Positions 1,319-58,517 of a DNA stretch of 62,370 bases are shown one piece after another. Each line of letters begins with the position of its first letter. The stretch's first letter is position 1. Under the pieces are notes generated by a model. That model was given only the letters and a program-made list of their open reading frames with translations. It made no database searches and was not told where the DNA came from. Position numbers and translations under genes: made by a program. The DNA is from a virus (Duplodnaviria; Caudoviricetes), in the IMG/VR virus record IMGVR_UViG_3300023184_000125, positions 1-62,370 of that record; one strand, given 5' to 3'.

Positions 1319-1482
1319 ATAATATTTTTTAATTTTAATTCTTTAATAACTTCGTCTCTGATATCAAGCTGTTCTTCAAGATATTTTATTTTTTTTAAAC
1401 ATTCTTCGATTGTTTCATGCATTGCACTTCTATAAGATGATGCTAATTCATCCGTAGTTTTATCCGATTTAAAATGATCCAT
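1315..1482 (-). CDS. Small 55-aa hypothetical protein between nrdB and nrdA
   Basis: Manual translation gives MDHFKSDKTTDELASSYRSAMHETIEECLKKIKYLEEQLDIRDEVIKELKLKNII*. It fills the gap exactly and has an ATGA overlap with the nrdA start. Confidence 0.7.
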   Translation of the reverse strand: MDHFKSDKTTDELASSYRSAMHETIEECLKKIKYLEEQLDIRDEVIKELKLKNII

Positions 1483-1484
1483 AA

Positions 1485-2456
1485 TTAAAATAATTCAGAT
1501 TCATCGAAACATTGTGATTTTTTAGAGTAACCCGTGTCTTTGCTATGAAAAAAGTCGGTCATATTATTTCCTAATAATTCTTCTTGAAACCACATTGTGG
1601 AGGAAATAAGATCTTTGTCAATCTCAAATGCATCTGGAAATCCAATCATTTTAAGGGATTCGTTGATTCTATTCTTAACAAATTCTTTAAGGATAACCGC
1701 ACTAAGACCTTCTTCTTTGATTCCATTTATCATCCAATCAATAATTTTTGATTCTGCTTCATATGCTTCTTTTGCTTCACTGATTATTCTGTTTGTAAAT
1801 TCATCGTCGAACAAGTCTGGATATTCTTCTCTAATGGTGTTAATAATTTGAGCACCAACCATACCATGAATATTTTCTTCATTACGAGTGTATTTTACTT
1901 GTTGATCGGTATCTTTAAGAACATTTTTAAAACGAGCAAACCAGTTGATTACATAGAACTGAGAGAATAACGAGACGTTTTCAACGAATAAAGTAAACAG
2001 TGTTAGTGCGTAAACATACTGCTTCTTTGAATCCTTATAATACCTATGCGTATATTTTTTAAGATATTTCACCCTACCTTCGATCCAATCAAGTTTTAGA
2101 TTTTCTTCAAAAACATCCTCCAATCCTAAAATAGAAATTAATCTTTCATATGCATTATTATGAATAACCTCGGTGTTAGCCATAACATATCCAAGATCTT
2201 GTAATGATGGGTGTGGAAGATTCTCCCCAAGCTTCGACCAAAACGTTTTTACTGCGATTTCTATTTGTCCAATAGCAGACAAGGTTCTAATAACAATCTC
2301 TCTTTCTTGTTCAGTTAAAGATACTTTAAATTGTTGTACATCAGACTTAAATGAGAATTCCTTATCTGTCCAAAATCCATTATGCATGCTTTCAATGAAT
2401 TTTTCTGTCCATGGATATTTGTTTGGTTTGCGTGATACTTGTTCTTCGAAAATCAT
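1485..2456 (-). CDS. nrdB: Ribonucleotide reductase small subunit (class Id/NrdBi-like)
   Basis: Ferritin-like metal ligands QIEIAVK, EVIH..AY, VENVSLFSQF, EENIH; C-terminal DFF..K..Y tail. Confidence 0.95.
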   Translation of the reverse strand: MIFEEQVSRKPNKYPWTEKFIESMHNGFWTDKEFSFKSDVQQFKVSLTEQEREIVIRTLSAIGQIEIAVKTFWSKLGENLPHPSLQDLGYVMANTEVIHNNAYERLISILGLEDVFEENLKLDWIEGRVKYLKKYTHRYYKDSKKQYVYALTLFTLFVENVSLFSQFYVINWFARFKNVLKDTDQQVKYTRNEENIHGMVGAQIINTIREEYPDLFDDEFTNRIISEAKEAYEAESKIIDWMINGIKEEGLSAVILKEFVKNRINESLKMIGFPDAFEIDKDLISSTMWFQEELLGNNMTDFFHSKDTGYSKKSQCFDESELF

Positions 2457-2491
2457 AGTGTTATATTTAATATAAGATCCCTAATTGTCTT

Positions 2492-2860
2492 CTATTTTTT
2501 GCGAGAAGTCAAAACTTTTTTATTGGAAAATGAATGCTTTTCTAATTCTGATTTATATAATTTATTAGCTAATATTTTTAGGAAATATGCTAAATCTAAT
2601 GATTCACAAACATTTACAATTCTACTTTCTATATATTTTACCATAGTTTCTGAATATTCCGGAAATAAATAATGTACACATTCATGATAAGCTGTTGATA
2701 ATAATTCTCTTCTGTAATCTATTTCCAAATCAGTCCAATTACAGGACCCTTCATATTTGTACATTTTTTTAAGTTGAAAAAATTCTGCGGGTTTTCTTTT
2801 AACCAATCTGACACATTTTTCATGGATTTCCACTATTTCTTTTTTGGTTAAAGTTTTCAT
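2492..2860 (-). CDS. Small HExxH-motif protein (metallopeptidase-like)
   Basis: TAYHECVH motif; TAAGTA 6 nt upstream of the start. Confidence 0.5.
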   Translation of the reverse strand: MKTLTKKEIVEIHEKCVRLVKRKPAEFFQLKKMYKYEGSCNWTDLEIDYRRELLSTAYHECVHYLFPEYSETMVKYIESRIVNVCESLDLAYFLKILANKLYKSELEKHSFSNKKVLTSRKK

Positions 2861-2881
2861 GTATCATACTTATTTTTTTAA

Positions 2882-2910
2882 TTGCATATTTTAACGCGAA
2901 TGATTAGTAT
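2882..2910 (+). promoter_or_regulatory. Sigma70-like promoter of the AAA ATPase gene
   Basis: TTGCAT-17 nt-TAGTAT, 6 nt before the ATG at 2917. Confidence 0.5.
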
Positions 2911-2916
2911 AGTCGT

Positions 2917-4116
2917 ATGTTTACTGTAAAAAACACATTTAAAACTGATATATCAAAATTTTATGAAATTCATGATAATGGAAATGAATTTCCAGTTGCG
3001 AGGTATATTAGTACATATTCTAAATATGCTCCATGTTTTCTTTATGTAAACGAAACATTTAAATCTTCGATTTTAAATTTTCTTTTAGAGAAAAGTAATT
3101 TGATATACAATTCATATTCTGGTAAATTGAAATCTTTAATTAAAGATCCAGAAGCATTTAAGGGGGGTACGTTTTTATTTGAATATAAAGATATTTTTGT
3201 AAAATTAATAGTTAAAAATTCAGAAGATACCAATATAACATTTACCGATTTAAACGGAGAAGTTCATAGTCTAGATGAAACCTCTATAGACGATAGACTT
3301 AAAGATAATCCCCATAAAACTTATGAGATGATGATCATATACCCATCTAATGTTAATGATTTACATCTAAAAGATTTCGAACCTTTTGTAGACATTTCAA
3401 GTTCTTCTAAAATTCATCTGTTTGTTAAAAATAGATATGATGAATATGTTTTTGAGCCGATCAATATGAATATTCCTGATAATATAGATATTGAATTAAA
3501 TTATGGTAAAAAGTTTTTAAAGATTGAATCTGAAATTATAGAAAGACTTAATAAAAATGATAAAGGATTATATATGTTTCATGGTATTCCGGGGACTGGT
3601 AAAAGTACTTTTCTTAAATATCTTACTACTAAAGTAACCAAAGATTTTATTTATATTCCAGCCACCATGATAGAATCCTTTGTTAATAATCCAAGCACTC
3701 TTTCTACTTTGTTACAGAAGAAAAATTCTGTTCTTATCTTAGAGGATGCGGAAAAAGCAATCGTAAAGAGAATGGGTGATAGCTACGACTCATCAGCGGT
3801 AACATCTCTTTTAAATTTATCTGATGGTATTTTGGGTGATATTTTAAAATGTCCAATAATTCTAACTTATAATTGTCCTAAACAAGACATTGATGATGCT
3901 TTAAGGAGAAAAGGTAGATTACAGATTGATTATGAATTTGGATCTCTCACTTTGGATGAATCTAAAAGACTTGCTAAACAATTAGGATTCTCTAAAAAAG
4001 AAATAGAAGAAAATATAACTAAAGAAATGGTAATCGCTGAAATATATAATTTAACAAAACAAACGGAAATGAATGAAACTAAAAAAGAAGATAAAGTAAT
4101 TGGATTTGGATTTTAA
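2917..4116 (+). CDS. AAA+ ATPase
   Basis: Walker A GIPGTGKS, Walker B ILEDAE, LLNLSDG, arginine finger ALRRKGR, C-terminal IGF. Confidence 0.9.
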   Translation: MFTVKNTFKTDISKFYEIHDNGNEFPVARYISTYSKYAPCFLYVNETFKSSILNFLLEKSNLIYNSYSGKLKSLIKDPEAFKGGTFLFEYKDIFVKLIVKNSEDTNITFTDLNGEVHSLDETSIDDRLKDNPHKTYEMMIIYPSNVNDLHLKDFEPFVDISSSSKIHLFVKNRYDEYVFEPINMNIPDNIDIELNYGKKFLKIESEIIERLNKNDKGLYMFHGIPGTGKSTFLKYLTTKVTKDFIYIPATMIESFVNNPSTLSTLLQKKNSVLILEDAEKAIVKRMGDSYDSSAVTSLLNLSDGILGDILKCPIILTYNCPKQDIDDALRRKGRLQIDYEFGSLTLDESKRLAKQLGFSKKEIEENITKEMVIAEIYNLTKQTEMNETKKEDKVIGFGF

Positions 4117-4117
4117 T

Positions 4118-4927
4118 ATGAATTTTGAATCTTTTTTAAGTTTAGAACATAGTTTTTCTGATATTCTTTTTTTAGAAAAGAATCACAAATATACAATCGC
4201 CGGAGAACCAGCAAAAATGTCAGTTTCTCAGGTGATTAAGAATTATGAAAAACCATTCAATTCACAAAAAGCCGCATCTTTTGTTGCTCAACGAGATGGA
4301 TTTTCAGTCGAGGATGTATTATCCCAATGGGAGTTTTTAAAGGATTATTCCTGTCATAAGGGTTCTGAATTTCATAAATATGTTGAAAATTATTTCAATA
4401 GAAAACAAACAAGTTTAGATAGAGATTCTATAAATTTGTTTTTTAATAAGAGAAAAGAATTTAAATCTGATAATTCTGTAGAATTATATTATCGAGAAGT
4501 TGCCGTCCTAATTAGAAATTTTATAAACTTTTATAATTGGTGGAAACAAGAACATATTTTAATAAAATCTGAATTTGTTATTGGTGATAAGGAATCTGGT
4601 ATATGCGGCAGTGTTGATAATCTGTCTTATAATTTTAAAACTAATGAATTGGTTATGTTTGATTATAAAACAAACAAGGAAATTAAAAGAAGTAATCCAC
4701 GAAAAGAAACATTATTGAGAGAATTAAAACATTTACCTCAATGCGAATTCGCAAAATATAGTTTACAGCTATCTCTTTATTCAACTATTATAGAAAAAAT
4801 AACTAATTTTAAGGTTCCAAAATCATATATCGTTTGGGTTAATGGGGAAGCCGATTACGAACTAATAGAATGTTTGGATCTGAAAAAAGAATCTAAACTA
4901 ATACTTGATAGTTACGTAAAAAAATAA
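4118..4927 (+). CDS. PD-(D/E)xK exonuclease (Cas4/RecB-like family)
   Basis: G.EFH, SEF, GSVD, DYKT and Y.LQLSLY motifs. Confidence 0.85.
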   Translation: MNFESFLSLEHSFSDILFLEKNHKYTIAGEPAKMSVSQVIKNYEKPFNSQKAASFVAQRDGFSVEDVLSQWEFLKDYSCHKGSEFHKYVENYFNRKQTSLDRDSINLFFNKRKEFKSDNSVELYYREVAVLIRNFINFYNWWKQEHILIKSEFVIGDKESGICGSVDNLSYNFKTNELVMFDYKTNKEIKRSNPRKETLLRELKHLPQCEFAKYSLQLSLYSTIIEKITNFKVPKSYIVWVNGEADYELIECLDLKKESKLILDSYVKK

Positions 4928-9738: not shown

Positions 9739-10428
9739 TTAATTTATTTTTGATACTTTATAACCTTTGGATGTTTTTATTAAATTATTGGAACATCTGT
9801 TTAAATTTGAAGATTCTAATCCATTTTCTTTGGCATATTTTGTTAAATTTTGAACTACAATTTGTTCTTCGTTTGGTTTTGTAATTAAATATCTACCATT
9901 ATAAGTAGTTTTCTTATTCTTTATTAACAAATTATATTTTTCTTTAACTAATTTATATTTATGTGGTTTATTTATTATACAACTAACATTATTAGGTTTA
10001 CAATTTAAAATTTCTGAAATTTTTTTAATTTTAATTCCTCTATTGTACATGTCAAACATTGATATGACTTCTTTATCAGTATATACTCTTTGAGCTTGAA
10101 ATTGATTTTCTATCGATTTTTTAGTTCTAATACGACCCAACGAACTTCCAGCAACTTTACATAGATTATAATTCGGTTTCAATATATTAATATAATATTG
10201 TTCTCTTTTTATACAATCTTCTTTTGAACAAACTTCTAATATTTCAAAAATCAAATCAACATCTGGATTTTTATTGTAAACTCTTTGAATAAATTTGCAT
10301 GGATTTTTATTTAAATGTAATAAACTTTTATGATTTGAAAATCTTTTTCTGAAACTTATTGACGCGCTTCCTATATAAAATTTATTATTAATAGGGTTTA
10401 TTATTTTATAAATTCCAGTTTTTTCCAT
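9739..10428 (-). mobile_element. Free-standing GIY-YIG homing endonuclease gene
   Basis: TGIYKI..NKFYIGSA..RKRF..H, REQYYI..YN; C-terminal HTH/NUMOD-like segments. The start could be 10455. Confidence 0.9.
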
Positions 10429-10471
10429 GTTAAATTGATTTAAACATATTAACATTTTAATTTATAATAAT

Positions 10472-20612: not shown

Positions 20613-20999
20613 TTACAGTTCAGAAAATAATTTATTATAATCAAAATAAAATCTTACAAATATTTTTCTACCATTTTTTCGTTTAATTTCACCAAACGTA
20701 TAACAATATATTTTATTTTTATATTTAAAAACAAAACATTTATCCATTGTATTTAAAAAAAAATTTATTTCAAAATCTATTTCCGGTCTTTTAAAAAAGA
20801 ATTTTTCTATTTGATGTTCTGTTAACATATCAAATTTATCATCATTTTTTATACTTTCACAAATTGTTTGTAAAGTATTCCATAATCCTTTTTTATTTAA
20901 AATATCCAATTTATAAATGGGCCATTTAGTTATATAATTATATTGCAAATCTCCATTACCCATTTTTGTAAATTCTTGATATTTATTTGTTTTTTTCAT
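20613..20999 (-). CDS. Hypothetical protein
   Basis: 128-aa ORF (non-ATG first codon; start may be the internal ATG), inserted in opposite orientation within the late module. Confidence 0.5.
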   Translation of the reverse strand: MKKTNKYQEFTKMGNGDLQYNYITKWPIYKLDILNKKGLWNTLQTICESIKNDDKFDMLTEHQIEKFFFKRPEIDFEINFFLNTMDKCFVFKYKNKIYCYTFGEIKRKNGRKIFVRFYFDYNKLFSEL

Positions 21000-21006
21000 T
21001 AGGTAT

Positions 21007-21014
21007 TATAAATA
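21007..21014 (+). promoter_or_regulatory. T4-type late promoter TATAAATA
   Basis: Exact T4 late consensus 8 nt before the ATG at 21023. Confidence 0.65.
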
Positions 21015-21022
21015 TTTATAAC

Positions 21023-21442
21023 ATGGGACGTAAGAAAAAAGAGGAAATTGAAAAAATTGATTTATCACATCTCGATACTAAAGATGTCGTAGTTGATGCT
21101 TCATTTTATAAAGGAAATGAAAATTTATTAAAGGGTAATACTCAAATTAAGTGGACCCCCGAAATGATTGATGAATTTGAAAAATGTGCAAAAAATATTT
21201 TACAATTTTCTGAAAATTATTTTTTTATTAATACTATAGATGATGGAAAAAAGAAAATAGAATTATATAAATATCAAAAAAAATTATTAAGAGCGTTTAG
21301 AGATAACCGTTTTAATATTATTTTGAGTTCTCGCCAATCGGGTAAGTGCCTTACATTTAACACTTTAATAAAAATAAAAAACAAAATAACAGGTGAAATA
21401 GAAGAAATTACAATAGGAGAGTTTTATAATAAATTTAATTAA
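21023..21442 (+). CDS. Terminase large subunit N-terminal part fused to a 31-aa split intein N fragment
   Basis: gp17-like YKGNENL..WTPEMI.EF.KC, LYKYQ, SRQSGK, then CLTFNTLI...TIGEFYNKFN stop. Confidence 0.92.
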   Translation: MGRKKKEEIEKIDLSHLDTKDVVVDASFYKGNENLLKGNTQIKWTPEMIDEFEKCAKNILQFSENYFFINTIDDGKKKIELYKYQKKLLRAFRDNRFNIILSSRQSGKCLTFNTLIKIKNKITGEIEEITIGEFYNKFN

Positions 21443-21832
21443 AAACAATTCAAACGTGTTTGGATTTCTTAAAAAATGAATAAAAAAGAAAAAATAATAA
21501 AGTCTTATGATATTTCTGATTATGAGATAATGACAGATGATGGTTGGAAGGATATAACTCATGTACATAAAACGATTCCATTTGATATATGGCATTTAGA
21601 AACCGAAAGTGGATTATTTATTGATTGTGCGGACGAACATATCGTTATAGATGAATTTGGAAAGTCTGTATATGTTCAAGATTTAACAATTGGCGATAAG
21701 ATAAAAACAATTAATGGTATAGAAAAAGTAAAACATGTATTCAAAACAGATTCTTTACCAGTAAATATGTATGATGTAACAGTAGATAGTAGTAATCATA
21801 CTTTTTATAGTAATGGTATTCTATCACATAAC
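21347..21832 (+). mobile_element. Atypically split intein (IntN 21347-21439, IntC 21476-21832)
   Basis: Block A Cys1 follows Walker A GK. Block B (CADEH), block F (MYDVTV..HTFYSNG) and block G (SHN/T) are all in the second gene. Confidence 0.92.
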
Positions 21833-23374
21833 ACTACAACGATAACTATTTATGCGTTATGGATTGTTTGTTTTCAGGCGGATAAGAGAATTACTATTGT
21901 TGCTAATAAAGAATCGACAGCAAAAGAAATCTTTTCTAGAATAAGAATGTCGTTTGAAGAACTTCCCGTTTGGATGAAGCCAAGTGTAAAGTCTTGGAGA
22001 AAGGATGGATTTCAATTAGGAAACGATTCTGAAATAAAGGTTAGTACATCTTCTTCATCCGGTCCGAGAGGTAGCACATCAAATCTTTTGATCATTGATG
22101 AAATGGCCCACTGTCCAAATGAGGTTATGCAAGAACTTTGGAAGAGTGCTATTCCGATTATTTCGTCTTCTAAGAAATCTCAAATTGTTGTTATATCTAC
22201 TCCTAACGGAACTGATAATAAATTTTACGAATTATATAAAGAATCACAAAAAGAAAAAAGTTCTTGGCATTTAGAAACTGTTAACTGGGATGATGTTCCA
22301 GGTAGAGATGAAGAATGGAAAAGAGAAACTTTAAGTCTTCTTAATAATAATATAGATGATTTCGAGCAAGAATATTGTAATAGATTCCATGCGCCGGGCA
22401 AAACTGCGATTGATGCTGATCTTTTAAAATCTTTACAAGCCCAATGCAAGGAACCCATATATGTTATGGAAGATGGGGCGTATAAAATATATAATACACC
22501 GTCTCCTGATGGAGTATATGTAGTTGGTGTTGATGTTGGCGAGGGTATAGGTAGAAGTAATACGGTAGCACAAATATTAAATATAGCAGATTTAACTAAA
22601 ATAGAACAAGTGGCTGTATTTGCATCTAATACGATAAGCCCATATCATTTCGGGACTCGTCTAATGGGTATTTTAGAAGACTGGGGTAGACCTCCAGTAT
22701 TAGTTGAAAACAATAACAATGGTCAACAGGTACTCGATGTATTACATCACACTCATAACTATGAAACTATAGTTTCTTATGATATTCAAGGAAGTAAATT
22801 TTATAATAAAGAAAATAGATTAGGTATATATAATCATACAAATACAAAATATAAAGGAGTCGTTAACTTTAGATATTGGTCTAACAGTTTAAATGCCGTA
22901 AAATATAATGATTTAGATACTTTATTAGAATTAGAAACTTTTGTTAAACTTCCTAATTTTACATTTAGTAAAAGAAAAGATACCGATAAAGATGATAGAG
23001 TTATGTCTATGATATGGGCATTATTCATATTAGATCCATCTGTAGCTGAAAAATATTATGCTATCGGTGATATTGATGATCAGGGTCGCCCATTAAAAAT
23101 TACACCATTAAATAATAATTCAGAGTTAATTAAAAAGAGTCCATTATTTGAAGGTAAAACTTCTCAATTTAAAAGAACTACAGCAACCCATAGACCTACA
23201 TATTCTCATGTTGGAAAATTCGATGCGGAAACAGTAAATACAAATACGGAAGATCAAGAAGATTTGATGGTATGGCTTTCTGGGTGGGGTCAAAAACAAA
23301 CACCAAAAAAAGAAGAACGGAAAGATGAAGAAACGGTAAATATAAATGAAACATTTTTTCCAATTGTATTCTAA
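21476..23374 (+). CDS. 119-aa split intein C fragment fused to the terminase large subunit C-terminal part
   Basis: SHN|TTT, VANK, Walker B IIDEMAH, ISTPNG, FEQEY, nuclease GVDVGEG, VENN, DDRVMS. Confidence 0.95.
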   Translation: MNKKEKIIKSYDISDYEIMTDDGWKDITHVHKTIPFDIWHLETESGLFIDCADEHIVIDEFGKSVYVQDLTIGDKIKTINGIEKVKHVFKTDSLPVNMYDVTVDSSNHTFYSNGILSHNTTTITIYALWIVCFQADKRITIVANKESTAKEIFSRIRMSFEELPVWMKPSVKSWRKDGFQLGNDSEIKVSTSSSSGPRGSTSNLLIIDEMAHCPNEVMQELWKSAIPIISSSKKSQIVVISTPNGTDNKFYELYKESQKEKSSWHLETVNWDDVPGRDEEWKRETLSLLNNNIDDFEQEYCNRFHAPGKTAIDADLLKSLQAQCKEPIYVMEDGAYKIYNTPSPDGVYVVGVDVGEGIGRSNTVAQILNIADLTKIEQVAVFASNTISPYHFGTRLMGILEDWGRPPVLVENNNNGQQVLDVLHHTHNYETIVSYDIQGSKFYNKENRLGIYNHTNTKYKGVVNFRYWSNSLNAVKYNDLDTLLELETFVKLPNFTFSKRKDTDKDDRVMSMIWALFILDPSVAEKYYAIGDIDDQGRPLKITPLNNNSELIKKSPLFEGKTSQFKRTTATHRPTYSHVGKFDAETVNTNTEDQEDLMVWLSGWGQKQTPKKEERKDEETVNINETFFPIVF

Positions 23375-46226: not shown

Positions 46227-46976
46227 TTATTGAAAAATGTGTGGATAATGGCACATATTCGAGTTTCCTAAATTTCCATATAATACATTGTTGTCCCTTA
46301 ATATCCACCACACATTCGATACACCATTAAAAATCATATCAAAACTACAATTTAATTTTTTAAGATGATGCGCAAATACCTCATGATGACACAAAGGTAC
46401 TTCATTATTAATATTATATTCTTTTAAATTTTCATATAATTTAGTTAAAAATAATATATTTTTTGGATTCGAAAGCAACATTTTAACATCAATGATTCCA
46501 TCATTTAAACTCATATCCCACCTAGACCCTTCACAATAAGAAGAATATATACAGTTTAAATCATATATATTAAAAGTTTTTAATTTTTCATTACAAAAAA
46601 CATCAGTTCTTGTGACAATTACAACATCATATTCACATAAATATTCTTCGAGTAAATTTCCAACTTTATACATCGAGTATATTGGAGAAATATAACGTTG
46701 AATGGACTCTATATCTATGTTATTTTTTTTATTAAAATTTGAATCATTTTCAAAAAAATTTGAAAAATCTTCCTGTTTTTCTATTTTAAGTTTTTTGGGG
46801 TGATATAGTTCGTTTATATCATTGTACAATTTTTCAATATCATCCTGTGTTGAACTTTCTTCACACCACGAATGTATAAAAAAATCATAATCAACTGATT
46901 CTAAAAAATTTTTATGACATTTAAAACCCAATTCATAATGCCTTGGATAACCAAATAAACACACAGCTATTTTCAT
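46227..46976 (-). CDS. Putative glycosyltransferase
   Basis: MKIAVCLFGYPR, DFFIHSW, YSM, YD.VI.TRTD: a pattern common in polysaccharide loci. Confidence 0.6.
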   Translation of the reverse strand: MKIAVCLFGYPRHYELGFKCHKNFLESVDYDFFIHSWCEESSTQDDIEKLYNDINELYHPKKLKIEKQEDFSNFFENDSNFNKKNNIDIESIQRYISPIYSMYKVGNLLEEYLCEYDVVIVTRTDVFCNEKLKTFNIYDLNCIYSSYCEGSRWDMSLNDGIIDVKMLLSNPKNILFLTKLYENLKEYNINNEVPLCHHEVFAHHLKKLNCSFDMIFNGVSNVWWILRDNNVLYGNLGNSNMCHYPHIFQ

Positions 46977-48076
46977 ATTATGTCACAATTTGAATTCAAA
47001 TTTTTTAAACCTTTTATTATTTCATCATTATATTGTGAACATCTTACTATTATTATTGGATTTGTATCATTTTTTATAATAGATGAATTTTTAATTTTTA
47101 TATTTGTACCATATAAAAAATTATCTATTTTATTAATATCATTATCTAATATGCATATTATATTATCAAGATTTAACCCAAATGCAATTAGCATTTGAGT
47201 AAAAATGTGACCGCCAAAACAATATACTTTTTTGTTTTTTATTTTTTTATTAATATTATTAACATCCCATTTTACGCTTTCTATGTGTTTTTTATATATC
47301 ACACTAGTTTTAGTTTTATCTAAAATTTTATTAGATTCAACATTTTGTTTTTTCTGTAAAGTATAAAATGTATTATATTTAGAATATTCTGTAATATCTA
47401 TTAAATCAAAATTACAAACATTAGAAATATACTTTATATAATCATGATTTATATAAAACGTATGTTCAAAATTTATAGCATTCAAAAATCCATCTATTAT
47501 TTGATTTTCTATGTTTGGAACTGAAATAATAAATTTCCCATCATCTATTAATAAATTTCTTATCAAATTTAATGTCTTTATCGGATCATATAAATGTTCA
47601 AACGTATGACTCATAACTACACTGTCATATTTTTTATCATCTTTAATATCCTCTATGAATCCTCGCAAAAAAATTATTTTTGGATTTATATTGCACTCAT
47701 AACTATCCGCTATATCTAATATGGTATAAGATTTTATTTGAGTGTAATCTGTTATTAATTTTGCGATTTTTAAATTAGCCCCACCAACTTCCAATAAATT
47801 CTTACAATTATTATTTAATATATAATTTGAAAAATTTTTGTTATGTTCTTCCCAAGTTTTACCTATAGCTGGATTGTGTGGTGTTTTATATAATATATTT
47901 GGATCTAATAAATTTTTTAATTGTACAAACCCACACCCTTTACAAGACATGATAGCCATATCATTGTATTGTGGTTTTTCATTTTCTTTAATGATTCCCA
48001 TGTATATTGGGAAATTTGAATAATTATGCAATTCATTTAAATTTGAATTGCATAATATACAGGTATTTCTTATCAT
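46973..48076 (-). CDS. SAM-dependent methyltransferase, NDP-sugar C-methyltransferase-like
   Basis: Zinc-binding CILC..CKGC, LEVGG, SHTFEH, VPN, EH, C-terminal Rossmann-like domain (LDND..K). Confidence 0.75.
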   Translation of the reverse strand: MIRNTCILCNSNLNELHNYSNFPIYMGIIKENEKPQYNDMAIMSCKGCGFVQLKNLLDPNILYKTPHNPAIGKTWEEHNKNFSNYILNNNCKNLLEVGGANLKIAKLITDYTQIKSYTILDIADSYECNINPKIIFLRGFIEDIKDDKKYDSVVMSHTFEHLYDPIKTLNLIRNLLIDDGKFIISVPNIENQIIDGFLNAINFEHTFYINHDYIKYISNVCNFDLIDITEYSKYNTFYTLQKKQNVESNKILDKTKTSVIYKKHIESVKWDVNNINKKIKNKKVYCFGGHIFTQMLIAFGLNLDNIICILDNDINKIDNFLYGTNIKIKNSSIIKNDTNPIIIVRCSQYNDEIIKGLKNLNSNCDII

Positions 48077-48919
48077 TTATTTTTTTAAAAAATTGTTAAA
48101 TAAATTTTCACCCAACCCATCCATTTGTTCGAAAAAAGATTTACTGAGTTGTATATTTTTTTCAGTTATTTCTGGGCAAAAATCTTTAGTTTCTGTCGAA
48201 ATGCCACTATATTGTTCATTCCAATATGAATTAAAATCACTCCAAGATTTATTAGATTCAAATAAATCCCACACTCTCGTACCAATTGTTGGAACTGTTT
48301 TATAATATATAGCAGATTTTAATCCTTGTAAAGTTCTCATGCTACCAGTGATTATATTTTGATGTGGTTTAAATTTTGTATCGGCTAAATATTTTAAGTG
48401 TGAATCTGCATCGATCCCAATTTCCTCCATTCTACCCGGAATTATACTAGCGTAATGTACATTATTATAATTCATAACCCTACAAATTGTTCCAAAATCA
48501 GATATGCCAGTAATATTCACATAAATATTATTAAATATTTCATTATCCAGTAAATCTAAAATATAACTAAAATGTGGAAGTTTCAATGCTATTACACTAT
48601 TTCCAATTTTCAATTTAGAAATGTATTCAACCCATTTAATTATGTCATACTCATTCATTTTAGAATTAGGAACCTGTACATATACTAGTCCATTAGCTCC
48701 TCTAATTTCTTCTAAAGTTTCTGCCATTTCTTTTACCAAGTATTCAAATTCGCTAGTAGTGTGGCAATTAACTTTTGCTAGAGCATTTGGATTAGTAGTT
48801 ATACCAACACATGACTTTGGATCACAAGTATCTTTAAGTTTACTCCAAATGTTTTTAATTGCTTTGGTGTCGGCAGTATCAAAAAAGAACTGCGGTGTAT
48901 TTTTTGTTTTATTATTCAT
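48077..48919 (-). CDS. Transaldolase/fructose-6-phosphate aldolase family protein, divergent
   Basis: FFDTAD, GITTNP, Schiff-base LKLP, NIT, GRM, SMR. Confidence 0.85.
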   Translation of the reverse strand: MNNKTKNTPQFFFDTADTKAIKNIWSKLKDTCDPKSCVGITTNPNALAKVNCHTTSEFEYLVKEMAETLEEIRGANGLVYVQVPNSKMNEYDIIKWVEYISKLKIGNSVIALKLPHFSYILDLLDNEIFNNIYVNITGISDFGTICRVMNYNNVHYASIIPGRMEEIGIDADSHLKYLADTKFKPHQNIITGSMRTLQGLKSAIYYKTVPTIGTRVWDLFESNKSWSDFNSYWNEQYSGISTETKDFCPEITEKNIQLSKSFFEQMDGLGENLFNNFLKK

Positions 48920-48937
48920 AATTTTATTTTAAGATTT

Positions 48938-49318
48938 TTATGGATTTTCTGCGGTTCTTGGTCCTTTAATAATTCTATTTTTAATAGCTTTTTTTGTCGA
49001 TTCCCAATCTATGTGTTGATAAACTGCATCATCAATAAACAAATCGGCATGTGGTTTAGTCCACCATATTTCATCATATGGTATGTTATGTTTTTCAAGC
49101 CAATCAAAAAGTATTTTACCTTGTTTTCCTAAAATTTTTCCTTGATTTCCATCACATGTTTTCATATGTCTAGCTGTATGTAAAATAATCGTATGACCTT
49201 CTGATTTTAACCAATTTATAGTTTCTAATGCCTCTGGAAATGGGTTTACGTCTTTATACGTTTTTCCATCAATTTTTCTCTCACATATCGTATTGTCAAT
49301 ATCAAATGCAAAAATCAT
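48938..49318 (-). CDS. HAD phosphatase (capsule-biosynthesis BcbF/EcbF-like)
   Basis: FDIDNTI, HTARHM, WL.KH.IPYDE, KP..D.FIDD. Confidence 0.85.
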   Translation of the reverse strand: MIFAFDIDNTICERKIDGKTYKDVNPFPEALETINWLKSEGHTIILHTARHMKTCDGNQGKILGKQGKILFDWLEKHNIPYDEIWWTKPHADLFIDDAVYQHIDWESTKKAIKNRIIKGPRTAENP

Positions 49319-50088
49319 AATATGCTACTTTCAAATTTAATTACATCTTCTGGTGTTCCCAATGGGACTACATCTTTAACCGTGTGAACATATACTAATT
49401 GATTTATGCTTGCGTGATATCTTGGAATCATACTCATATAATATTCTTTTTTGTCAGAAAAACCAACAGGTTCTAAATTTTCGAAAATAAAATCTGCGTA
49501 ATTTTTGAATTGATCCATTTTAGGAAAATAAAAAACTCCAATTAAACATGGATAATTAACCCAAGAATCATCTTTTTCTATTATTTCTAATGCTATAGAA
49601 TTTCTAACTCTAGCATTTGCCCATTTATTTGGTATTTTTGAATCGATTGGATTAAAACAAACAATAGACATCGATGAAATATCATTTGGTGTGTTTTTTA
49701 TAAAATCATCAATTTTATTGTGATCATATTTATTATCTGCATCTAAAATTAAAAGTGGAGTTTTTGTATCATTCATGTAATCACATGAAATCCTAGCTGT
49801 GTCTAAATTTCCTCTTGTCGTTTTATCGAATGGAATAATTGTTATATTTTTTCCGTATATATTATGTAAAAAACTTTCTAGTCCATCTTCTAAATGTTCT
49901 TTTCTTACTGAAAAAAATAAATTAATATTTTCATCTTGCTGATCTGTATTATGTTTTATATATGGACATGATTCAGTTGTCCATTCTAAAATTGTTTTAC
50001 CTTTAACTTTAATTAGAGGTTTTGGTGTTTTATAACCAAAATCAGAAAACCTTTTTCCTTCTCCCGCCATTAATATTAATATATTCAT
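49315..50088 (-). CDS. Sugar-phosphate nucleotidyltransferase
   Basis: MAGEGKRF...GY..PKPLI, TRG..T, DAD, IEK, G.FYF, EYY, LGTPED. Confidence 0.85.
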   Translation of the reverse strand: MNILILMAGEGKRFSDFGYKTPKPLIKVKGKTILEWTTESCPYIKHNTDQQDENINLFFSVRKEHLEDGLESFLHNIYGKNITIIPFDKTTRGNLDTARISCDYMNDTKTPLLILDADNKYDHNKIDDFIKNTPNDISSMSIVCFNPIDSKIPNKWANARVRNSIALEIIEKDDSWVNYPCLIGVFYFPKMDQFKNYADFIFENLEPVGFSDKKEYYMSMIPRYHASINQLVYVHTVKDVVPLGTPEDVIKFESSIL

Positions 50089-51023
50089 ATTGTTTCGTTT
50101 AAAATTTTAATACCCGTTAAATACATCGCAAGTTGTCTTTCTTTACTGTCATAATGCCTAGCACACATTCCAATATATATCATACCTTGTATGAAATTTA
50201 TATTTTTTTTATTTTCATTTGAAAATTTCGACCAAAATGAATCGAATGCGTCTTTTTTATTTTGTGTATCGTTTAAAGTTAATTCATATTCGCTTTTAGA
50301 TGTTTTTTTAACATTAAATTTATCGTTTATAAAAAATTCATACCCACCATCAACGGAGTGTGCCAATTTAGATAAATCATATAAAGTATCGCCATATATC
50401 CCTCTTTTTCCAAAAGAACCCCTCATATCTATTAATTTAATACCTGCAATGTCATGATATAAAATGTTACTGAAACACATATCACCATGAATCATATTTG
50501 ATTTGTAATTTAATAAATCGTTTAAAATTTTATTAGTGTTTGATTCGTTCCAAATAATTTCAAAATTTTTATATTCCTTTCCATTTAATATTAAAATGTC
50601 ATTGTAAAACAAATCTGAATCTTCAAATGAATTTTTAAAATTAATATATTCATTTAATGTTTTATCAAAATACATTTGTTTTGCGTGAGAGGATGTATTA
50701 TCGTCTTTATCGTTTTGACTTCTGAATACTTCTATTATTGATTTAATATTATCAAAAACATCATTCCAATTTATCAATAAATTGGATATTATATATTCTC
50801 CTAAATTTTTATAAGGATAATATTCCAAGATCATGGAATATTCATCATTTATTCTTGATGAAGAAAATTTTCTGGGAAAAAGAAAAGAAACATTTTTCGG
50901 AATACTTTCATAATAATTTATTTCGTCGTTTAACCTTGAAGAAGTACTGGATTTTACTATTCTTCCGTTTGAAATTTTTTCAATTTTATTATATGCTCTA
51001 GTTAAAAAATTAGAGTTTTCCAT
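50085..51023 (-). CDS. APH/choline-kinase-fold sugar kinase
   Basis: VKS, E..YY, FP, LEYY, HGDMCFSNIL, LIDMRG, YDLSKL.HS. Confidence 0.8.
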   Translation of the reverse strand: MENSNFLTRAYNKIEKISNGRIVKSSTSSRLNDEINYYESIPKNVSFLFPRKFSSSRINDEYSMILEYYPYKNLGEYIISNLLINWNDVFDNIKSIIEVFRSQNDKDDNTSSHAKQMYFDKTLNEYINFKNSFEDSDLFYNDILILNGKEYKNFEIIWNESNTNKILNDLLNYKSNMIHGDMCFSNILYHDIAGIKLIDMRGSFGKRGIYGDTLYDLSKLAHSVDGGYEFFINDKFNVKKTSKSEYELTLNDTQNKKDAFDSFWSKFSNENKKNINFIQGMIYIGMCARHYDSKERQLAMYLTGIKILNETI

Positions 51024-51627
51024 ATTTCGATTCTATAATCTCATCAATAGAAATAATATTTAAATTAAATTTAACCGCTAACTCTTCGAGTTGTGGAAGT
51101 CTTGCCATAGACCCATCTTCATTCATAACTTCAATTATAACGGCAACTGGCGGCAGTTCGGCTGATAAACAAATTTCTATACTGGATTCCGTGTGTCCTT
51201 GTCGATCTTTCAAAAGTCCTTTTCTGGCTCTTAAAGGAAAAAGATGACCGGGTTGACAAAAATCAGTAGGTATACTAGTTTCACTTGTAAATTTGTTTAT
51301 TGTAACTAAACGATCTTTAACACTTACTCCTGTTGTAGAGTCTCCATTTGAATCTATACTATTCGCAAAGGGTGTTGAATATTTATCCAATTTATTGGTA
51401 TGCGTCATTGGTATATCTAAGCGTTCTAATCTGTCGCTTAGACATGGTAAACACATTATACCTCTTGCCCATCTAGCCATGAAAGCAAGATTTTCTACAT
51501 TAGCTTTCGATGCTGCTATCATTAAATCGCCTTCATTTTCTCTATCATAACTATCCACAATTATAACCGGTTTTCCTGCAATTACATCTTTTATGATGTT
51601 TTCATATGAGTTTGTATAATTTAACAT
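51010..51627 (-). CDS. ribB: 3,4-dihydroxy-2-butanone 4-phosphate synthase
   Basis: DRENEGD, ARGIMC, TTGVS..DR, PGHLFPL, RQGHTE, EVMNEDGSMAR. Confidence 0.95.
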   Translation of the reverse strand: MLNYTNSYENIIKDVIAGKPVIIVDSYDRENEGDLMIAASKANVENLAFMARWARGIMCLPCLSDRLERLDIPMTHTNKLDKYSTPFANSIDSNGDSTTGVSVKDRLVTINKFTSETSIPTDFCQPGHLFPLRARKGLLKDRQGHTESSIEICLSAELPPVAVIIEVMNEDGSMARLPQLEELAVKFNLNIISIDEIIESKYGKL

Positions 51628-51649
51628 ATTGTTTGTCTTTATTAAAATT

Positions 51650-51690
51650 AACACTATTTTTTAAAAAATCAACACTATTTTTTAAAAAAT
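51650..51690. repeat. Tandem direct repeat of 20 bp upstream of ribB
   Basis: AACACTATTTTTTAAAAAAT at 51650-51669 and 51671-51690. Confidence 0.85.
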
Positions 51691-51763
51691 AAATATTATT
51701 TTTTAATAATTTTTTCTGTTTATGTCATCATCTACCAACAATTAATAATGCTATTTTCATATT

Positions 51764-52726
51764 TTATAATTTATCTAAAAAAACAGTTTTAAATTTTTGC
51801 ATAACATTTTCTGGTGTAAAATTTTTATATGCATTCCAGTCTTTTTCTGGTTGTGGTATAAAATTTTTAAAAATGTTAAAAAGAGAATCGTAATTGTTAT
51901 AATATAAACCTTTTTCTTTTAAAGTAAATATATGATTTTTTTCTGATGAATCTGAATATGTTATTACTGGTTTATTACATGATGAAAATTCAGCAACAGC
52001 TGCTCCAAAGGATTCTCCCTCGAATCTTGAATGTATCATAGCATCACACGTATTGATAAATTTTCTTTTATAACTTAAATCCGCAAACGGTTCATGAAAA
52101 AGTATACGTTCATGTGTTGTAAATTTTGGCGTGTTTACTAAAATAAAATAAACATTTGGTATACTATTAACAAAATTTGTTATTGCATCATTTACAAACG
52201 ATATATTCCAAGAACCACTGTTACCAATTCTCCCAAAAACAATAGCATCGTCTGGTATATTAAATTTATGTCTTAAATTTTCATTACTTTCTGGTAAATT
52301 AACCATATATGGGACATATGGATTTTGTTTATTAGAATATGTTTCACTTAACCACTCGCTTACATATGCATAAACCAATCCATGTGGATCATTATGACAC
52401 CCAACAACATGAATAAACATTGGAACCGAATTTACATATCTACCATCATTTTTTAAACCACATTTTTGAATATACATTGCATCGAGATTTAAAGATTTGC
52501 AATAAATTTCAAGTTCATTCATATTATGTTCGCCATTTAATTCTATTACTTCTAAATTTTCTTTAAATTTTTTGGCAGCGTCTGGATGTGTTATATAATG
52601 GTTTTTATCGCAAAAGAAAAAGGATTTATTTCCTAATAATTTTTCATTATAGTATGCATAGTCAAAACAACTAACACCAGTACCTAAAATATCTAAATGT
52701 GGCTGATAAAAACCTATTCTTTTCAT
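51764..52726 (-). CDS. GT-B glycosyltransferase
   Basis: G...FDYA.YNE, HG.VYAYVSEWL, FGRIG, CDAMIH.R..GESFG.A.AEF...NKPV. Confidence 0.8.
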   Translation of the reverse strand: MKRIGFYQPHLDILGTGVSCFDYAYYNEKLLGNKSFFFCDKNHYITHPDAAKKFKENLEVIELNGEHNMNELEIYCKSLNLDAMYIQKCGLKNDGRYVNSVPMFIHVVGCHNDPHGLVYAYVSEWLSETYSNKQNPYVPYMVNLPESNENLRHKFNIPDDAIVFGRIGNSGSWNISFVNDAITNFVNSIPNVYFILVNTPKFTTHERILFHEPFADLSYKRKFINTCDAMIHSRFEGESFGAAVAEFSSCNKPVITYSDSSEKNHIFTLKEKGLYYNNYDSLFNIFKNFIPQPEKDWNAYKNFTPENVMQKFKTVFLDKL

Positions 52727-53427
52727 TTAAAAATTCTAATGTTTTGAGTTTCGACGCTCCAGTGTGGTTTAAAATCAAGCAATTCTCCACTATGTTCATG
52801 TTTAAAACTACAATAATCCCTATAATCAAATGAATAAACTTTAGTTTTAATGTTATTAAATTCAAAATTTTGCATTTTTTGATTAATTATGGTATCATCC
52901 GTATAATAAATGTTCAAATTTAATGGGGATAATACGTCTCTAACTGCATTTGAAAAAACATTCGGACCTGTCAATTCAAATATATCATGTGTAGTTTTAT
53001 TTAAAATGTTATAAACACATTTTTTTAATGTATTTTCTAATATTGGATGATTTTTATCAAACATCAAACACCATTGTACAAATTTATTTGGGTTATTTTC
53101 TCTTGATATTACTGCTTTGTCATTTTCACCAATTAAAGAATCTAAGTTTGAATGTATTCCCGAATCCAAATCTAAATATATTCCTCCATTTTTATATAAA
53201 ATGGCATATCTCCACAAATCAGCTTTAGCCGCACCGATGTTTAAACTTTCATATGCATCAACTACTTGTTTCCCAAAATTACTTTGCATAAAATAAAATG
53301 CATCCGCATCATCATATATTTCATATGAATAATTTGGATTTAACTCCATGGTTCTATCAATTATTTTTTTTGTTTTATCTGGTAATTTTTTAGTTATCCA
53401 CGTTTGATATATTTTTTTTGGAATCAT
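52723..53427 (-). CDS. GT32 (OCH1-like, DxD) glycosyltransferase
   Basis: IPKKIYQTW, ADLWRY..LY..GGIYLDLD, TGP. Confidence 0.9.
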   Translation of the reverse strand: MIPKKIYQTWITKKLPDKTKKIIDRTMELNPNYSYEIYDDADAFYFMQSNFGKQVVDAYESLNIGAAKADLWRYAILYKNGGIYLDLDSGIHSNLDSLIGENDKAVISRENNPNKFVQWCLMFDKNHPILENTLKKCVYNILNKTTHDIFELTGPNVFSNAVRDVLSPLNLNIYYTDDTIINQKMQNFEFNNIKTKVYSFDYRDYCSFKHEHSGELLDFKPHWSVETQNIRIFK

Positions 53428-53462
53428 TTTATATTAATAATATATACCATATAAAAACAACA

Positions 53463-53474
53463 TGTCAATTGACA
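53463..53474. promoter_or_regulatory. Back-to-back TTGACA hexamers (palindrome TGTCAATTGACA) between divergent genes
   Basis: Perfect 12-bp palindrome in a 74-bp divergent intergenic region. Confidence 0.6.
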
Positions 53475-53501
53475 TTTAAAAAAAAATATTAAATAAAGAA
53501 T

Positions 53502-54050
53502 ATGAGCGACATTCAATATTACAGAACAAGAAGCGAGTTATTAGATTTAATTCCAGAAAATTCAAATATATTAGAAATTGGAGTGTTTAAGGGTGATTTT
53601 TCAAAGGAAATTATTAAAAAAACAAAATTTAACAATTTGTTTTTTGTTGATATATGGCATGGTGAATATGGTTCCGGTGATAAAGATGGTAATAACCATT
53701 TAATAGTCGAAAGTATGGAATCCGTTTATATTTCTTTATATAAACAAGCAATGGATAAACCAAACATACACCTTATAAGAATGGATTCTGTTAATTTTTT
53801 AAAAAATTGGTATAATGATTACTTTGATGCTATATATATTGATGGAGATCACACCGAAGAAGTGGTCTATAATGATTTAATTCTATCATTAGACCGTATT
53901 AAAAGTGGTGGTTTATTAATGGGGCATGATTATGGCAGTTGTCATGGGGTTACTTCCGCAGTTAGCAGATTCTGTGAACAGTATAATCAAAAACTTATTG
54001 GGTTAGCTATGGATGGATGTCAATCTTTTGTAATAAAAATATCAAAATAG
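53502..54050 (+). CDS. Class I SAM-dependent methyltransferase
   Basis: LEIGVFKG, VDIW, IYIDGDH, GG...GHDY. Confidence 0.85.
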   Translation: MSDIQYYRTRSELLDLIPENSNILEIGVFKGDFSKEIIKKTKFNNLFFVDIWHGEYGSGDKDGNNHLIVESMESVYISLYKQAMDKPNIHLIRMDSVNFLKNWYNDYFDAIYIDGDHTEEVVYNDLILSLDRIKSGGLLMGHDYGSCHGVTSAVSRFCEQYNQKLIGLAMDGCQSFVIKISK

Positions 54051-54878
54051 TATATTTTGTATTTTGTCTTTTATATCATTTAAATTTATTTCATTTTTAA
54101 ACAATGGTTCGTTTAAAACGTTAAGATATTTTTGATCATCGTTATCAATTTGTTTAATATGATCTAAAAAATGATCTAAATTTTCATAATTTATTAAATT
54201 TAAACAACAATTCTCATTAAAATCTTGTGAAAAACTTTTATCCGAATAATATAATGGGATATTACCAGCTATTTTAGCGTGGAGTAATTTTTCGGTAAAA
54301 TATCCCGGATATACGCTATTCTCAAAACAAATACTAAATTTATAATTTGATAAAATATCAAGTTTTACATCTTCACCATCGGGTAGATGGTTTTGATGTA
54401 TTTTACCATAACAATCAACTGATTTGTAAGATTGTATTTTGTTTATTGTGTCAAATCTTAAACTTATAGGCTTACTGAAAACCGAAGCGCAGAATTTTGT
54501 TTTTTCTTTCTTTATGTATTTGTTTATAAAACTTAAGGGTATTAAAGTTTTTGGATCCCCATAACCTTTGACATTAAACCAGTCTATATATAACATCCAA
54601 AGGGGTAATCTTATATTTCTCCCACTATATTTGTCAAAATCAAAAGTTAAAGAATAATTGCAATGATTAAAATCGGGTCTTATATTTTCTCCAGTAAAAA
54701 AAACCTTTTTACAGTGATTGTATCTTTTATTTGAATCGCCAAAACATGAAAATATGATCACATCGGCATTAGAAGCATCCGTTATAATAACATTTTCTTT
54801 AATTTGTTTAAATAAATGAATAAAAAAGTTATTATTTGGATCAAAAGATCCCCAAAAATCTAAAAATGCAATATTCAT
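54042..54878 (-). CDS. GT10 alpha-1,3-fucosyltransferase-like protein
   Basis: FTGEN.RP, RLP.W, YKFSICFENS...GYFTEK. Confidence 0.9.
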   Translation of the reverse strand: MNIAFLDFWGSFDPNNNFFIHLFKQIKENVIITDASNADVIIFSCFGDSNKRYNHCKKVFFTGENIRPDFNHCNYSLTFDFDKYSGRNIRLPLWMLYIDWFNVKGYGDPKTLIPLSFINKYIKKEKTKFCASVFSKPISLRFDTINKIQSYKSVDCYGKIHQNHLPDGEDVKLDILSNYKFSICFENSVYPGYFTEKLLHAKIAGNIPLYYSDKSFSQDFNENCCLNLINYENLDHFLDHIKQIDNDDQKYLNVLNEPLFKNEINLNDIKDKIQNILF

Positions 54879-55600
54879 CGTAAATGTGATAAAAACTGTA
54901 TAACTTTAGAATTACCTCTATAATTATTTCCCCACTGTGTTGGGTCTGGATAAGGATATAAATTGTTTTTCTTTGAAAGTAATGATAATATAGATTGATC
55001 GTGTCGATTATCTTTAAATTCTAAATAATTTTTATCATTACTTGGTAAATCTGTTAACAGTTGTTCATCACACGAAAGTTCAAGCCATTCTTTAACAAAA
55101 TTTTTACTAAAATTATTGTTTTTTATTATTATGAATGCCCCATTAAATTGACAGTTATATTTTCCAGTATAATAATAATCATCTTCACAACCCATTTTTA
55201 CAAATATATCTCTTTTTGTATATGTTTTTTCGGGATTCAAATTTTCATTTCCCAAAGATGATATAAATGTTAATATACCTTGAGTTTCTTCCAGTATTTC
55301 AAATAATGGCGTTATATCTTTATCAATTCTAATGGAAGAATCCGCATAAATAATTATGTCATTTTCATTAGATTGATTTAAAAATTCATTAATAAAATAT
55401 GGTTTCCATAACCAAAATCCAGCTCCTCTGGGTTGGTTCAGTATATGTAAATATTGTTTATAAAAATTTATATATATATTATTTTTATTTAATTCATATA
55501 CCTCATCAAAAATATTGAATTGTCTTGCTATTTGTGCATTGCATTTTTGACTTTCTATGTGTTTAGGGTTTAAATCTGCATAATTAAAAAATATTTTCAT
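54875..55600 (-). CDS. Putative glycosyltransferase
   Basis: RGAGFWLWKP, YADS, RHDQSILS. Confidence 0.65.
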   Translation of the reverse strand: MKIFFNYADLNPKHIESQKCNAQIARQFNIFDEVYELNKNNIYINFYKQYLHILNQPRGAGFWLWKPYFINEFLNQSNENDIIIYADSSIRIDKDITPLFEILEETQGILTFISSLGNENLNPEKTYTKRDIFVKMGCEDDYYYTGKYNCQFNGAFIIIKNNNFSKNFVKEWLELSCDEQLLTDLPSNDKNYLEFKDNRHDQSILSLLSKKNNLYPYPDPTQWGNNYRGNSKVIQFLSHLR

Positions 55601-55605
55601 ATGTT

Positions 55606-56217: not shown

Positions 56218-56269
56218 ATTAAAACCAGTATAGTTTATATTTTTAAAATTGCAAATATTTTCATATATT

Positions 56270-58515: not shown

Positions 58516-58517
58516 TT

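Follow-up and report, generated by a model that had tools for sequence, protein, structure and literature searches.

Organization of the terminase locus

The window analyzed here is a stretch of 62,370 nt, a linear virus record from IMG/VR (IMGVR_UViG_3300023184_000125) that is approximately 29% complete. The gene for the large terminase subunit (TerL) at positions 21023–23374 is present as two open reading frames (ORFs) on the same strand and in the same reading frame, with 33 nt between them. ORF1 extends from the ATG at 21023 to the TAA at 21440–21442 and encodes 139 aa, consisting of a 108-aa N-extein and a 31-aa N-terminal intein part (IntN). ORF2 extends from the ATG at 21476 to the stop codon at 23372–23374 and encodes 632 aa, consisting of a 119-aa C-terminal intein part (IntC) and a 513-aa C-extein. 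The TAA codons at 21440 and 21470 are in frame. We estimate a probability of about 0.85 that the locus carries a genuine, atypically split class 1 intein (Cys1...His-Asn|Thr+1) that assembles TerL by trans-splicing, homed as a cassette, lost its nuclease gene and has been retained by selection. The features are:

21320–21346, + strand: co-conversion tract of the donor type, the last 27 nt of the N-extein, with synonymous recoding only
21023–21346, + strand: TerL N-extein, 108 aa, ending in NIILSSRQSGK, the first half of Walker A
21347–21439, + strand: IntN, 31 aa, with Cys1 (CLTFNTLIKIKNKITGEIEEITIGEFYNKFN), followed by the stop codon TAA at 21440–21442
21443–21475, + strand: spacer of 33 nt, the relic of the 3' end of a deleted, free-standing homing-nuclease gene by DNA alignment to the nuclease-gene ends of related loci L007 and L008
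21476–21832, + strand: IntC, 119 aa (MNKKEK...GILSHN), with block B CADEH (His55), block F (Asp100) and block G GILSHN
21833–23374, + strand: TerL C-extein, 513 aa and stop codon, with Thr+1, TTTITIYALW, the second half of Walker A, then the ATPase and nuclease domains

The ORF layout was re-derived, and it agrees with an earlier sequence-only reading of this DNA in coordinates, residue counts and the positions of the two TAA codons. The junctions are also as that reading described them: ORF1 carries SRQSGK|C with 31 intein residues, and the 119-aa part of ORF2 holds blocks B, F and G and leads into SHN|TTT. IntN has the residues CLTFN...FYNKFN, and Cys109 of ORF1 comes directly after SGK. No endonuclease ORF is present between ORF1 and ORF2 in the window.

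The exteins represent a TerL of the T4 gp17 type (Terminase_6). They match PDB 3ezk with an E value of 4.9e-38, and 3cpe is matched as well; the match to Pfam Terminase_6N is 1.8e-11. ORF1 matches PHROG terminase families (phrog_5989, 4.8e-22), and a family profile matches the gp17 structures at 5e-107. Alignment with gp17 places the terminal Asn of the intein on Lys166 and the following TT on Thr167-Thr168; thus the break is between the Lys and the Thr of Walker A. The proposal of a short-N/long-C split at the Walker A GK|T of TerL is borne out by this alignment and by the ORF anatomy. The motif is whole only after joining, as it is in the nearest relative, L003.

The two ORFs probably share one transcript. 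No terminator-like site was seen between them, and a promoter scan was at chance level, with 22 sites found and 21.5 expected.

The insertion site in related loci

A scan of viral contigs gave 80 related loci, in each of which the four parts were placed by tblastn. TerL is uninterrupted in 70 of the 80, where SGK is followed directly by TTT. The split intein of the window is found in three (L008 and L009 with both halves, and L007, which is cut upstream), and a different in-frame insert of 349–350 aa occupies the same codon boundary in three more (L011, L040 and L069). Four loci are cut off ahead of the insertion site.

The N- and C-exteins of L003 are 99% and 98% identical to those of the window, and there is no insert. 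The empty site of the L003 type reads …CTTTCAAGTAGACAAAGTGGAAAA|ACTACAACC…. Because exteins of 98–99% identity go together with an uninterrupted SGK|TTT, the insertion is precise. For the same reason, the joined exteins of the window correspond to the sequence encoded by L003, and the earlier prediction that joining restores RQSGKTTT is confirmed by this relative.

The insert in L011 (positions 1574–2620), L040 and L069 is a contiguous intein at the boundary that matches window 21346|21833; the L011 exteins are 84–88% identical. This intein starts with Ala and has a LAGLIDADG domain (6.1e-9). A Trp is located two residues past the block B His, a Cys is at the position of the block F Asp and a Thr precedes the His-Asn. 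Judged by eye, it appears to carry the WCT signature of class 3 inteins.

Homing signatures and the nuclease gene

Comparison of the window with L008 shows 84–91% identity for IntN and IntC and 56–63% for the exteins (56–70% across the intein-bearing relatives). The intein dS (synonymous divergence) of 0.44–0.57, with 0.57 against L008, is far below the extein dS of 1.3 between the window and L008. The end of the N-extein displays a sharp change in similarity. The last 27 nt are identical to L003 at only 13 of 27 positions, compared with 281 of 297 in the preceding segment, and match L008, an intein-bearing locus that is divergent elsewhere, at 24 of 27; the encoded residues stay the same. On this nt pattern the segment is assigned as a classical co-conversion tract. 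The sequence comparisons indicate a horizontal arrival by homing, and the recoding in the tract may shield the site from the nuclease.

IntN and IntC of L008 and L009 are 84% and 91% identical to the window sequences (87–91% for IntC across L007 and L008), and the two halves are 1.4 kb apart. Between them is a free-standing ORF of 454 aa whose stop codon overlaps the start of IntC; L007 has the same 3' half. A C2H2 zinc finger is present in the 454-aa ORF, which matches the restriction-endonuclease family MTES_1575 weakly (5e-5, below the Pfam cut-off) and, by eye, contains a Vsr-like motif, EFQGTYWHS.

By sequence, the 33-nt spacer of the window is read as the last ~12 codons of this nuclease gene. 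The relic frame occupies approximately 21445–21483, with a stop codon that overlaps the IntC start (ATGAATAA). By eye, the nuclease frame is TIQTCLDFLKNE-stop in the window and TIQICLDFLKNE-stop in L007. Logan contigs from four runs were compared with window positions 20800–22200; a contig of 1095 nt from run X2 corresponds to 21441–21660 with one difference, and upstream of this segment it is the 3' end of the nuclease gene. Since the spacer represents the last codons of that gene, the gene has been deleted in the window. The nucleotides just past IntN's stop codon in L008 (TAAAAAACATAC) are similar to those at the downstream edge of the deletion (AAAAAACGATTC in L007), which suggests a deletion between A-rich microhomologies of ~7–8 nt. 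The earlier statement that there is no endonuclease holds for the gap in the window but not for its relatives, which have the 454-aa gene between the halves.

A nuclease gene between the intein halves, as in fractured genes, is absent from the window and present in L008, L009, L007, L087–L094 and Campylobacter phage F379. In the distant family members (L087–L094 and F379) the gap is occupied by a different nuclease with a T5orf172 domain. Because a different nuclease is present in the same gap, the break point is seen as a recurrent landing place. One codon boundary of an essential gene is thus found in four states: empty, with a split intein and nuclease, with a split intein and no nuclease, and with a different, LAGLIDADG intein. 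Together with the visible co-conversion tract, these four states document at one small locus how inteins and nucleases turn over in nature.

Reads across the junction

A unitig of 243 nt from run X1 (depth 39.2) covers positions 21410–21652 with no differences and reads through from the IntN stop across the spacer to the start of IntC. X1 is possibly the window's own sample. The read check across 21430–21480 that the sequence-only reading had proposed is covered by this unitig, and there is no continuous ORF. Contigs of runs X6 and X7 have only short fragments near the junction and are uninformative. X1, a lake sample, contains at least three forms of the junction: the nuclease-less form (depth 39.2), a form in which FNIKTD-stop leads into the nuclease gene (24.6), and a further variant of the nuclease 3' end (9.4). 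The nuclease-bearing forms appear as loose ends at 21439 and 21464 (depths 24.6 and 9.4).

The window is a contig assembled from a metagenome, and related variants coexist in one sample; these are circumstances in which a gene that is truly continuous, or truly nuclease-bearing, could be misrepresented by sequencing or assembly. Such an artefact is very improbable here. The junction is spanned without a difference by an independent k-mer unitig of depth 39, the deletion ends share only ~7–8 nt of microhomology, which would not collapse a graph built on 31-mers, and the IntN stop and IntC start are conserved in dozens of unrelated contigs.

Conservation of the break

Of 26 short, independent N-pieces, 24 have RQSGK-C and the motif NK.TG..E.TIGEF, with a stop codon 31–41 residues past the Cys. 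The IntC homologues that were compared are proteins of 347–1106 aa (n = 119, the window's own protein being left out). IntC is at the N-terminus in 101 of them, ten have a contiguous intein with Walker A upstream, and in eight a long N-terminal stretch of unclear nature precedes IntC. At +1, 98 have Thr and 21 have Ser; Cys was found in none of the 119. When 1.84 billion cluster representatives (50% identity) were searched exhaustively, 1012 matched at E ≤ 1e-3, 554 of them at ≤ 1e-10 and 13 at ≤ 1e-30. In a manual count of the best 150 of the 1012 representatives, the match starts within the first 45 residues in 123.

Chance does not account for the break, which is shared by many independent contigs, and the exact X1 bridge and the conserved N- and C-pieces support the earlier view that it is not a single-base error. 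The properties are those of a natural atypical split: a short IntN ORF with its own stop codon, an IntC ORF with blocks B, F and G, and a break that is kept in independent relatives.

ORF1 and ORF2 are in the same frame and 33 nt apart, and contiguous mini-inteins of the family are known in Ackermannviridae. A one-piece intein with an insert of 11 residues, produced by read-through of the two TAA codons or by an altered genetic code and spliced in cis, would agree with both observations. We consider this highly unlikely: both stop codons would have to be read through, genetic code table 11 yields long ORFs along the entire window, and a shared frame is expected by chance in one of three cases. 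In L008, moreover, the halves are in different frames and 1.4 kb apart with a gene between them. Read-through or recoding as the cause of the shared frame was rejected on the basis of the two TAA codons and the frames of the L008 halves.

Several other arrangements are found in the family. Proteins P0015, P0025, P0032, P0039, P0050, P0081 and P0099 have 200–300 residues ahead of IntC, and no Walker A is present upstream; P0015 begins with a Cys-rich, zinc-finger-like motif. Proteins of the P0015 type may represent nuclease-IntC fusions or run-on gene calls. In P0012, P0150, P0151, P0159, P0177 and others, the IntC query matches two or three separate stretches, which suggests that these members carry more than one intein or intein piece.

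The IntC family, always with SHN|T, also heads the C-pieces of DnaB_C proteins (P0035, P0048, P0049, P0066). Other C-pieces headed by the family are of the Clp/AAA type (P0060, P0073, P0078, P0085, P0100) and the SMC_N/AAA_23 type (P0058, P0062, P0070). Since the same IntC is found on these other P-loop ATPases (helicases, Clp-type AAA+ and SMC-like proteins), the lineage would appear to target Walker A sites generally.

Catalytic residues, selection and a model of the complex

Among 38 aligned C-pieces, the block B residue His55, the block F residue Asp100 and the block G segment Ile115-Asn119 do not vary, Thr+1 is at least 90% conserved, and Cys1 is invariant in 21 aligned N-pieces. The window intein has the residues of a class 1 intein, i.e., Cys1, the block B His, the block F Asp, the block G His-Asn and Thr+1. 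The ratio of nonsynonymous to synonymous divergence (dN/dS) for IntC is 0.078 against L008 and 0.149 against L007; IntN has 0.25 on few sites, and the neighbouring extein 0.113. These ratios indicate purifying selection after homing, as estimated from the aligned genes. The intein is genuine and probably active, judging by its residues and their conservation.

A model of the complex was made from ORF1 residues 95–139 and ORF2 residues 1–135, with three controls. The interaction prediction score from aligned errors (ipSAE) is 0.79, compared with 0.00 for the best control; the mark is reached by 116 of 157 solved complexes and by 2 of 215 mismatched pairs. The runs share at least 73% of the contacts, and the partner pLDDT (predicted local distance difference test) is at least 73. 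In the model, block B (49–56), block F (96–101) and SHN (117–119) are in contact with Cys1 and the tail of the N-extein. The model supports a predicted assembly of IntN with IntC. Because split-intein complexes have already been solved (e.g., Cat, 6dsl), its pass may echo known structures. In PDB searches, nothing beyond a chance match came up for the IntN end of ORF1, and the block F/G end drew weak, generic intein matches.

A number of points weigh against a working, selected split intein. By eye, there is no clear Shine-Dalgarno sequence upstream of ORF2. The Thr that is usual in block B (TxxH) is an Ala (CADEH); the same Ala is present in the alignments of VidaL and of the Serratia phage Kevin intein. 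With ~29% of the genome in the record, a second, intact TerL elsewhere in the genome is possible. Read-level support for the nuclease-less junction comes from run X1 only; as X1 also has nuclease-bearing variants, this form may have arisen recently or be in the minority. The exact nuclease-less junction gave no matches in metagenome_contigs, and back-translated patterns of IntN-stop...IntC-start gave none in viral_contigs and metagenome_contigs; the window's record was possibly left out of these collections. Splicing itself is a prediction from sequence and model.

Some of these points would also agree with a dead allele, i.e., a defective or dying variant in which the TerL pieces are no longer joined after deletion of the nuclease gene, and which persists as a minority in a population of nuclease-bearing or intein-less phages. 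The nuclease-less junction is seen only in the window and in X1, its possible source sample, where nuclease-bearing variants coexist. However, of the three X1 forms it has the greatest depth (39.2). Both ORFs are intact with all catalytic residues kept, the deletion took only the nuclease gene and left the IntN stop and IntC start in place, and the IntC dN/dS is 0.08–0.15. The nuclease-bearing relatives are equally split, which makes being split the normal functional state. A dead allele is thus considered unlikely, and an active, trans-spliced intein is the favored interpretation.

Proposed mechanism

In the proposed mechanism, the ORF1 product would consist of the N-extein and the 31-aa IntN, and the ORF2 product of the 119-aa IntC and the C-extein. 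IntN would dock on the nearly complete IntC and finish the HINT (Hedgehog/intein) fold. An acyl shift, transesterification onto Thr+1 and cyclization of Asn would then join RQSGK to TTT, these reaction steps being presumed. The joined product would have a recreated P-loop and an active packaging ATPase. The homing cassette is envisaged as a split intein with a free-standing nuclease gene, which would have entered an L003-like, intein-less gene and dragged in the synonymous co-conversion tract of ~27 nt. A later loss of the nuclease gene between A-rich microhomologies would have left the 33-nt spacer and the split intein stranded, immobile and kept by selection. Selection would act because the phage cannot package DNA unless TerL is trans-spliced. 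TerL at this locus is the only one seen in the phage fragment, and the sequence data support a dependence of DNA packaging on trans-splicing.

More tentatively, the window may represent the end state of a fractured-gene homing cycle, in which a free-standing nuclease split and mobilized a P-loop intein and was then lost. The lineage, very large and for the most part uncharacterized, would comprise ~1000 clusters at 50% identity, ~80% of them split at the same point, with Thr or Ser at +1, and would target the GK|T/S P-loops of TerL, DnaB-type helicases, Clp/AAA+ proteins and SMC-like ATPases. This broader picture is possible but clearly less secure than the interpretation of the locus itself.

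Other genes of the window

The window DNA is from an uncultured, T4-like myovirus of freshwater. It encodes ribonucleotide reductase, PhoH, tail sheath and tube proteins, baseplate proteins, gp32 and a DnaB-type helicase, together with a RecA/UvsX-like protein, a family B DNA polymerase and an SMC-like ATPase. Positions 9742–10455 (minus strand), between the PhoH and tail sheath genes, hold a free-standing nuclease gene of the GIY-YIG type (1.4e-8), probably for a further homing endonuclease. Positions 46230–62228 (minus strand) form a one-strand block with approximately 15 glycosyltransferase and methyltransferase genes (GT10 fucosyltransferase, GT25, GT47, GT2, FkbM, DUF268 and others) and, at 51013–51654, the DHBP synthase gene ribB (2.8e-65). 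This sugar-modification island is unusually large for a phage fragment.

Comparison with known split inteins and related systems

Natural atypically split TerL inteins, AceL and GOS, and the consensus Cat (PDB 6dsl) were reportedly described by Thiel (2014), Bachmann and Mootz (2015) and Stevens (2018). The window intein has neither the Cys+1 nor the close similarity to Cat of that group. When solved inteins are compared with the family profile, VidaL is closest (4.4e-13), gp41-1 is next (2e-9) and CatC follows (6.8e-6); with a single sequence as query, CatC is matched at E 3.1e-3. The weak similarity to CatC, with VidaL as the closest solved structure, answers the alignment to known inteins that the sequence-only reading had called for. 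Its suggestion of an independent intein stands in that this is a separate allele, nearer VidaL than CatC; it is not a lone oddity, and belongs to a family of 1012 clusters at 50% identity. Because a Cys+1 cannot be the Walker A Thr, AceL and GOS would have to occupy another site; the AceL, GOS and Cat inteins are probably located at Walker B.

According to PMC11766414 and PMC13014065, AceL-TerL has 25/104 aa (IntN/IntC) with Cys1 and Cys+1, GOS-TerL has 37/115 aa with Ser1 and Cys+1, and the consensus Cat has 30/104 aa. The window intein is like these in its phage TerL host, its short IntN (31 aa, compared with 25, 37 and 30 aa) and its long IntC with blocks B, F and G (119 aa, compared with 104–115). 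By the 31-aa length of IntN, its break is in the range of S2 (after helix alpha1), as in these inteins. Cys1 is shared with AceL and Cat. The difference is at +1, which is Cys there and Thr here; the earlier contrast on this point agrees with the table of PMC11766414. For two further inteins the same two sources and PMC10189870 give an IntN of 16 aa (VidaL) and 15 aa (PolB16, with Ser1/Ser+1). The few characterized natural short-IntN inteins named in these accounts are AceL-TerL, GOS-TerL, VidaL and PolB16, and all but PolB16 need Cys+1.

VidaL (T4Lh-1; PDB 6vgv/6vgw), from a phage-like metagenome, is another natural atypically split intein with Ala at the Thr position of block B. Unlike the window intein, with its 31-aa IntN and Thr+1, it has a 16-aa IntN split after beta2 (the S1 site) and is described in PMC13014065 as cysteine-dependent. 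A full-text literature search for an atypical split intein with a terminase matched no paper.

The fractured genes of Dassa et al. 2009 have split intein halves that flank a free-standing homing endonuclease, and the set as presented there includes one gp17 terminase locus from Lake Gatun with an unusual break and a C part of 122 residues (PMC2677866). L008, L009 and L007 (454-aa nuclease) and L087–L094 (T5orf172 nuclease) have this arrangement with the intein family of the window. Freshwater phages, a gp17-type terminase and an unusual break point are also common to both. The window differs in that its endonuclease gene is gone except for a relic of ~12 codons. The Lys|Thr position of the P-loop is termed a 'classic' intein site, TerL1-a, in the account of Kelley et al. 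2016 (PMC5050341). The mycobacteriophage TerL1-a inteins differ in that they are in another terminase family (Terminase_1).

Among cultured phages, 346 records have an IntC homologue that is 35–48% identical. Contiguous relatives at the same TerL site are common in Ackermannviridae, and that of Klebsiella phage Magnus is annotated as 'intein'. Serratia phage Kevin (PP869623) has the same insertion point (RQSGK|C...SHN|TTV), the same intein family and both Cys1 and Thr+1. The Ackermannviridae mini-inteins, unlike that of the window, are in one piece of ~158 aa and splice in cis. Split relatives are present in cultured Campylobacter phages, where the insertion (PRQ|C...SHN|SSKST) is three residues upstream of the window's site. 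Campylobacter phage F379 (L083, MT932329, Firehammervirus) has, at positions 1379–4725, a 167-aa TerL N-piece, a 381-aa nuclease and a 573-aa C-piece. The 381-aa protein is an 'intron-associated endonuclease' with a T5orf172 match of 0.0043, below the cut-off, and the IntC of the C-piece is 39% identical to that of the window. In a 2012 paper on a sister phage of F379, the arrangement was read as 'an intein and an intron' (PMC3322345).

Short-IntN split inteins are wanted for protein semisynthesis, since the short half can be made chemically. The window allele offers Cys1 and Thr+1, a 31-aa IntN and hundreds of natural variants. Should the lineage prove active, and orthogonal to Cat and VidaL, its members would form a library of short-IntN split inteins that is ready for use and leaves a scar of only Thr or Ser. 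In comparison with the systems above, the window intein is a new, uncharacterized allele of a known kind of element, to which it adds the loss of the nuclease gene and a population-level record of homing.

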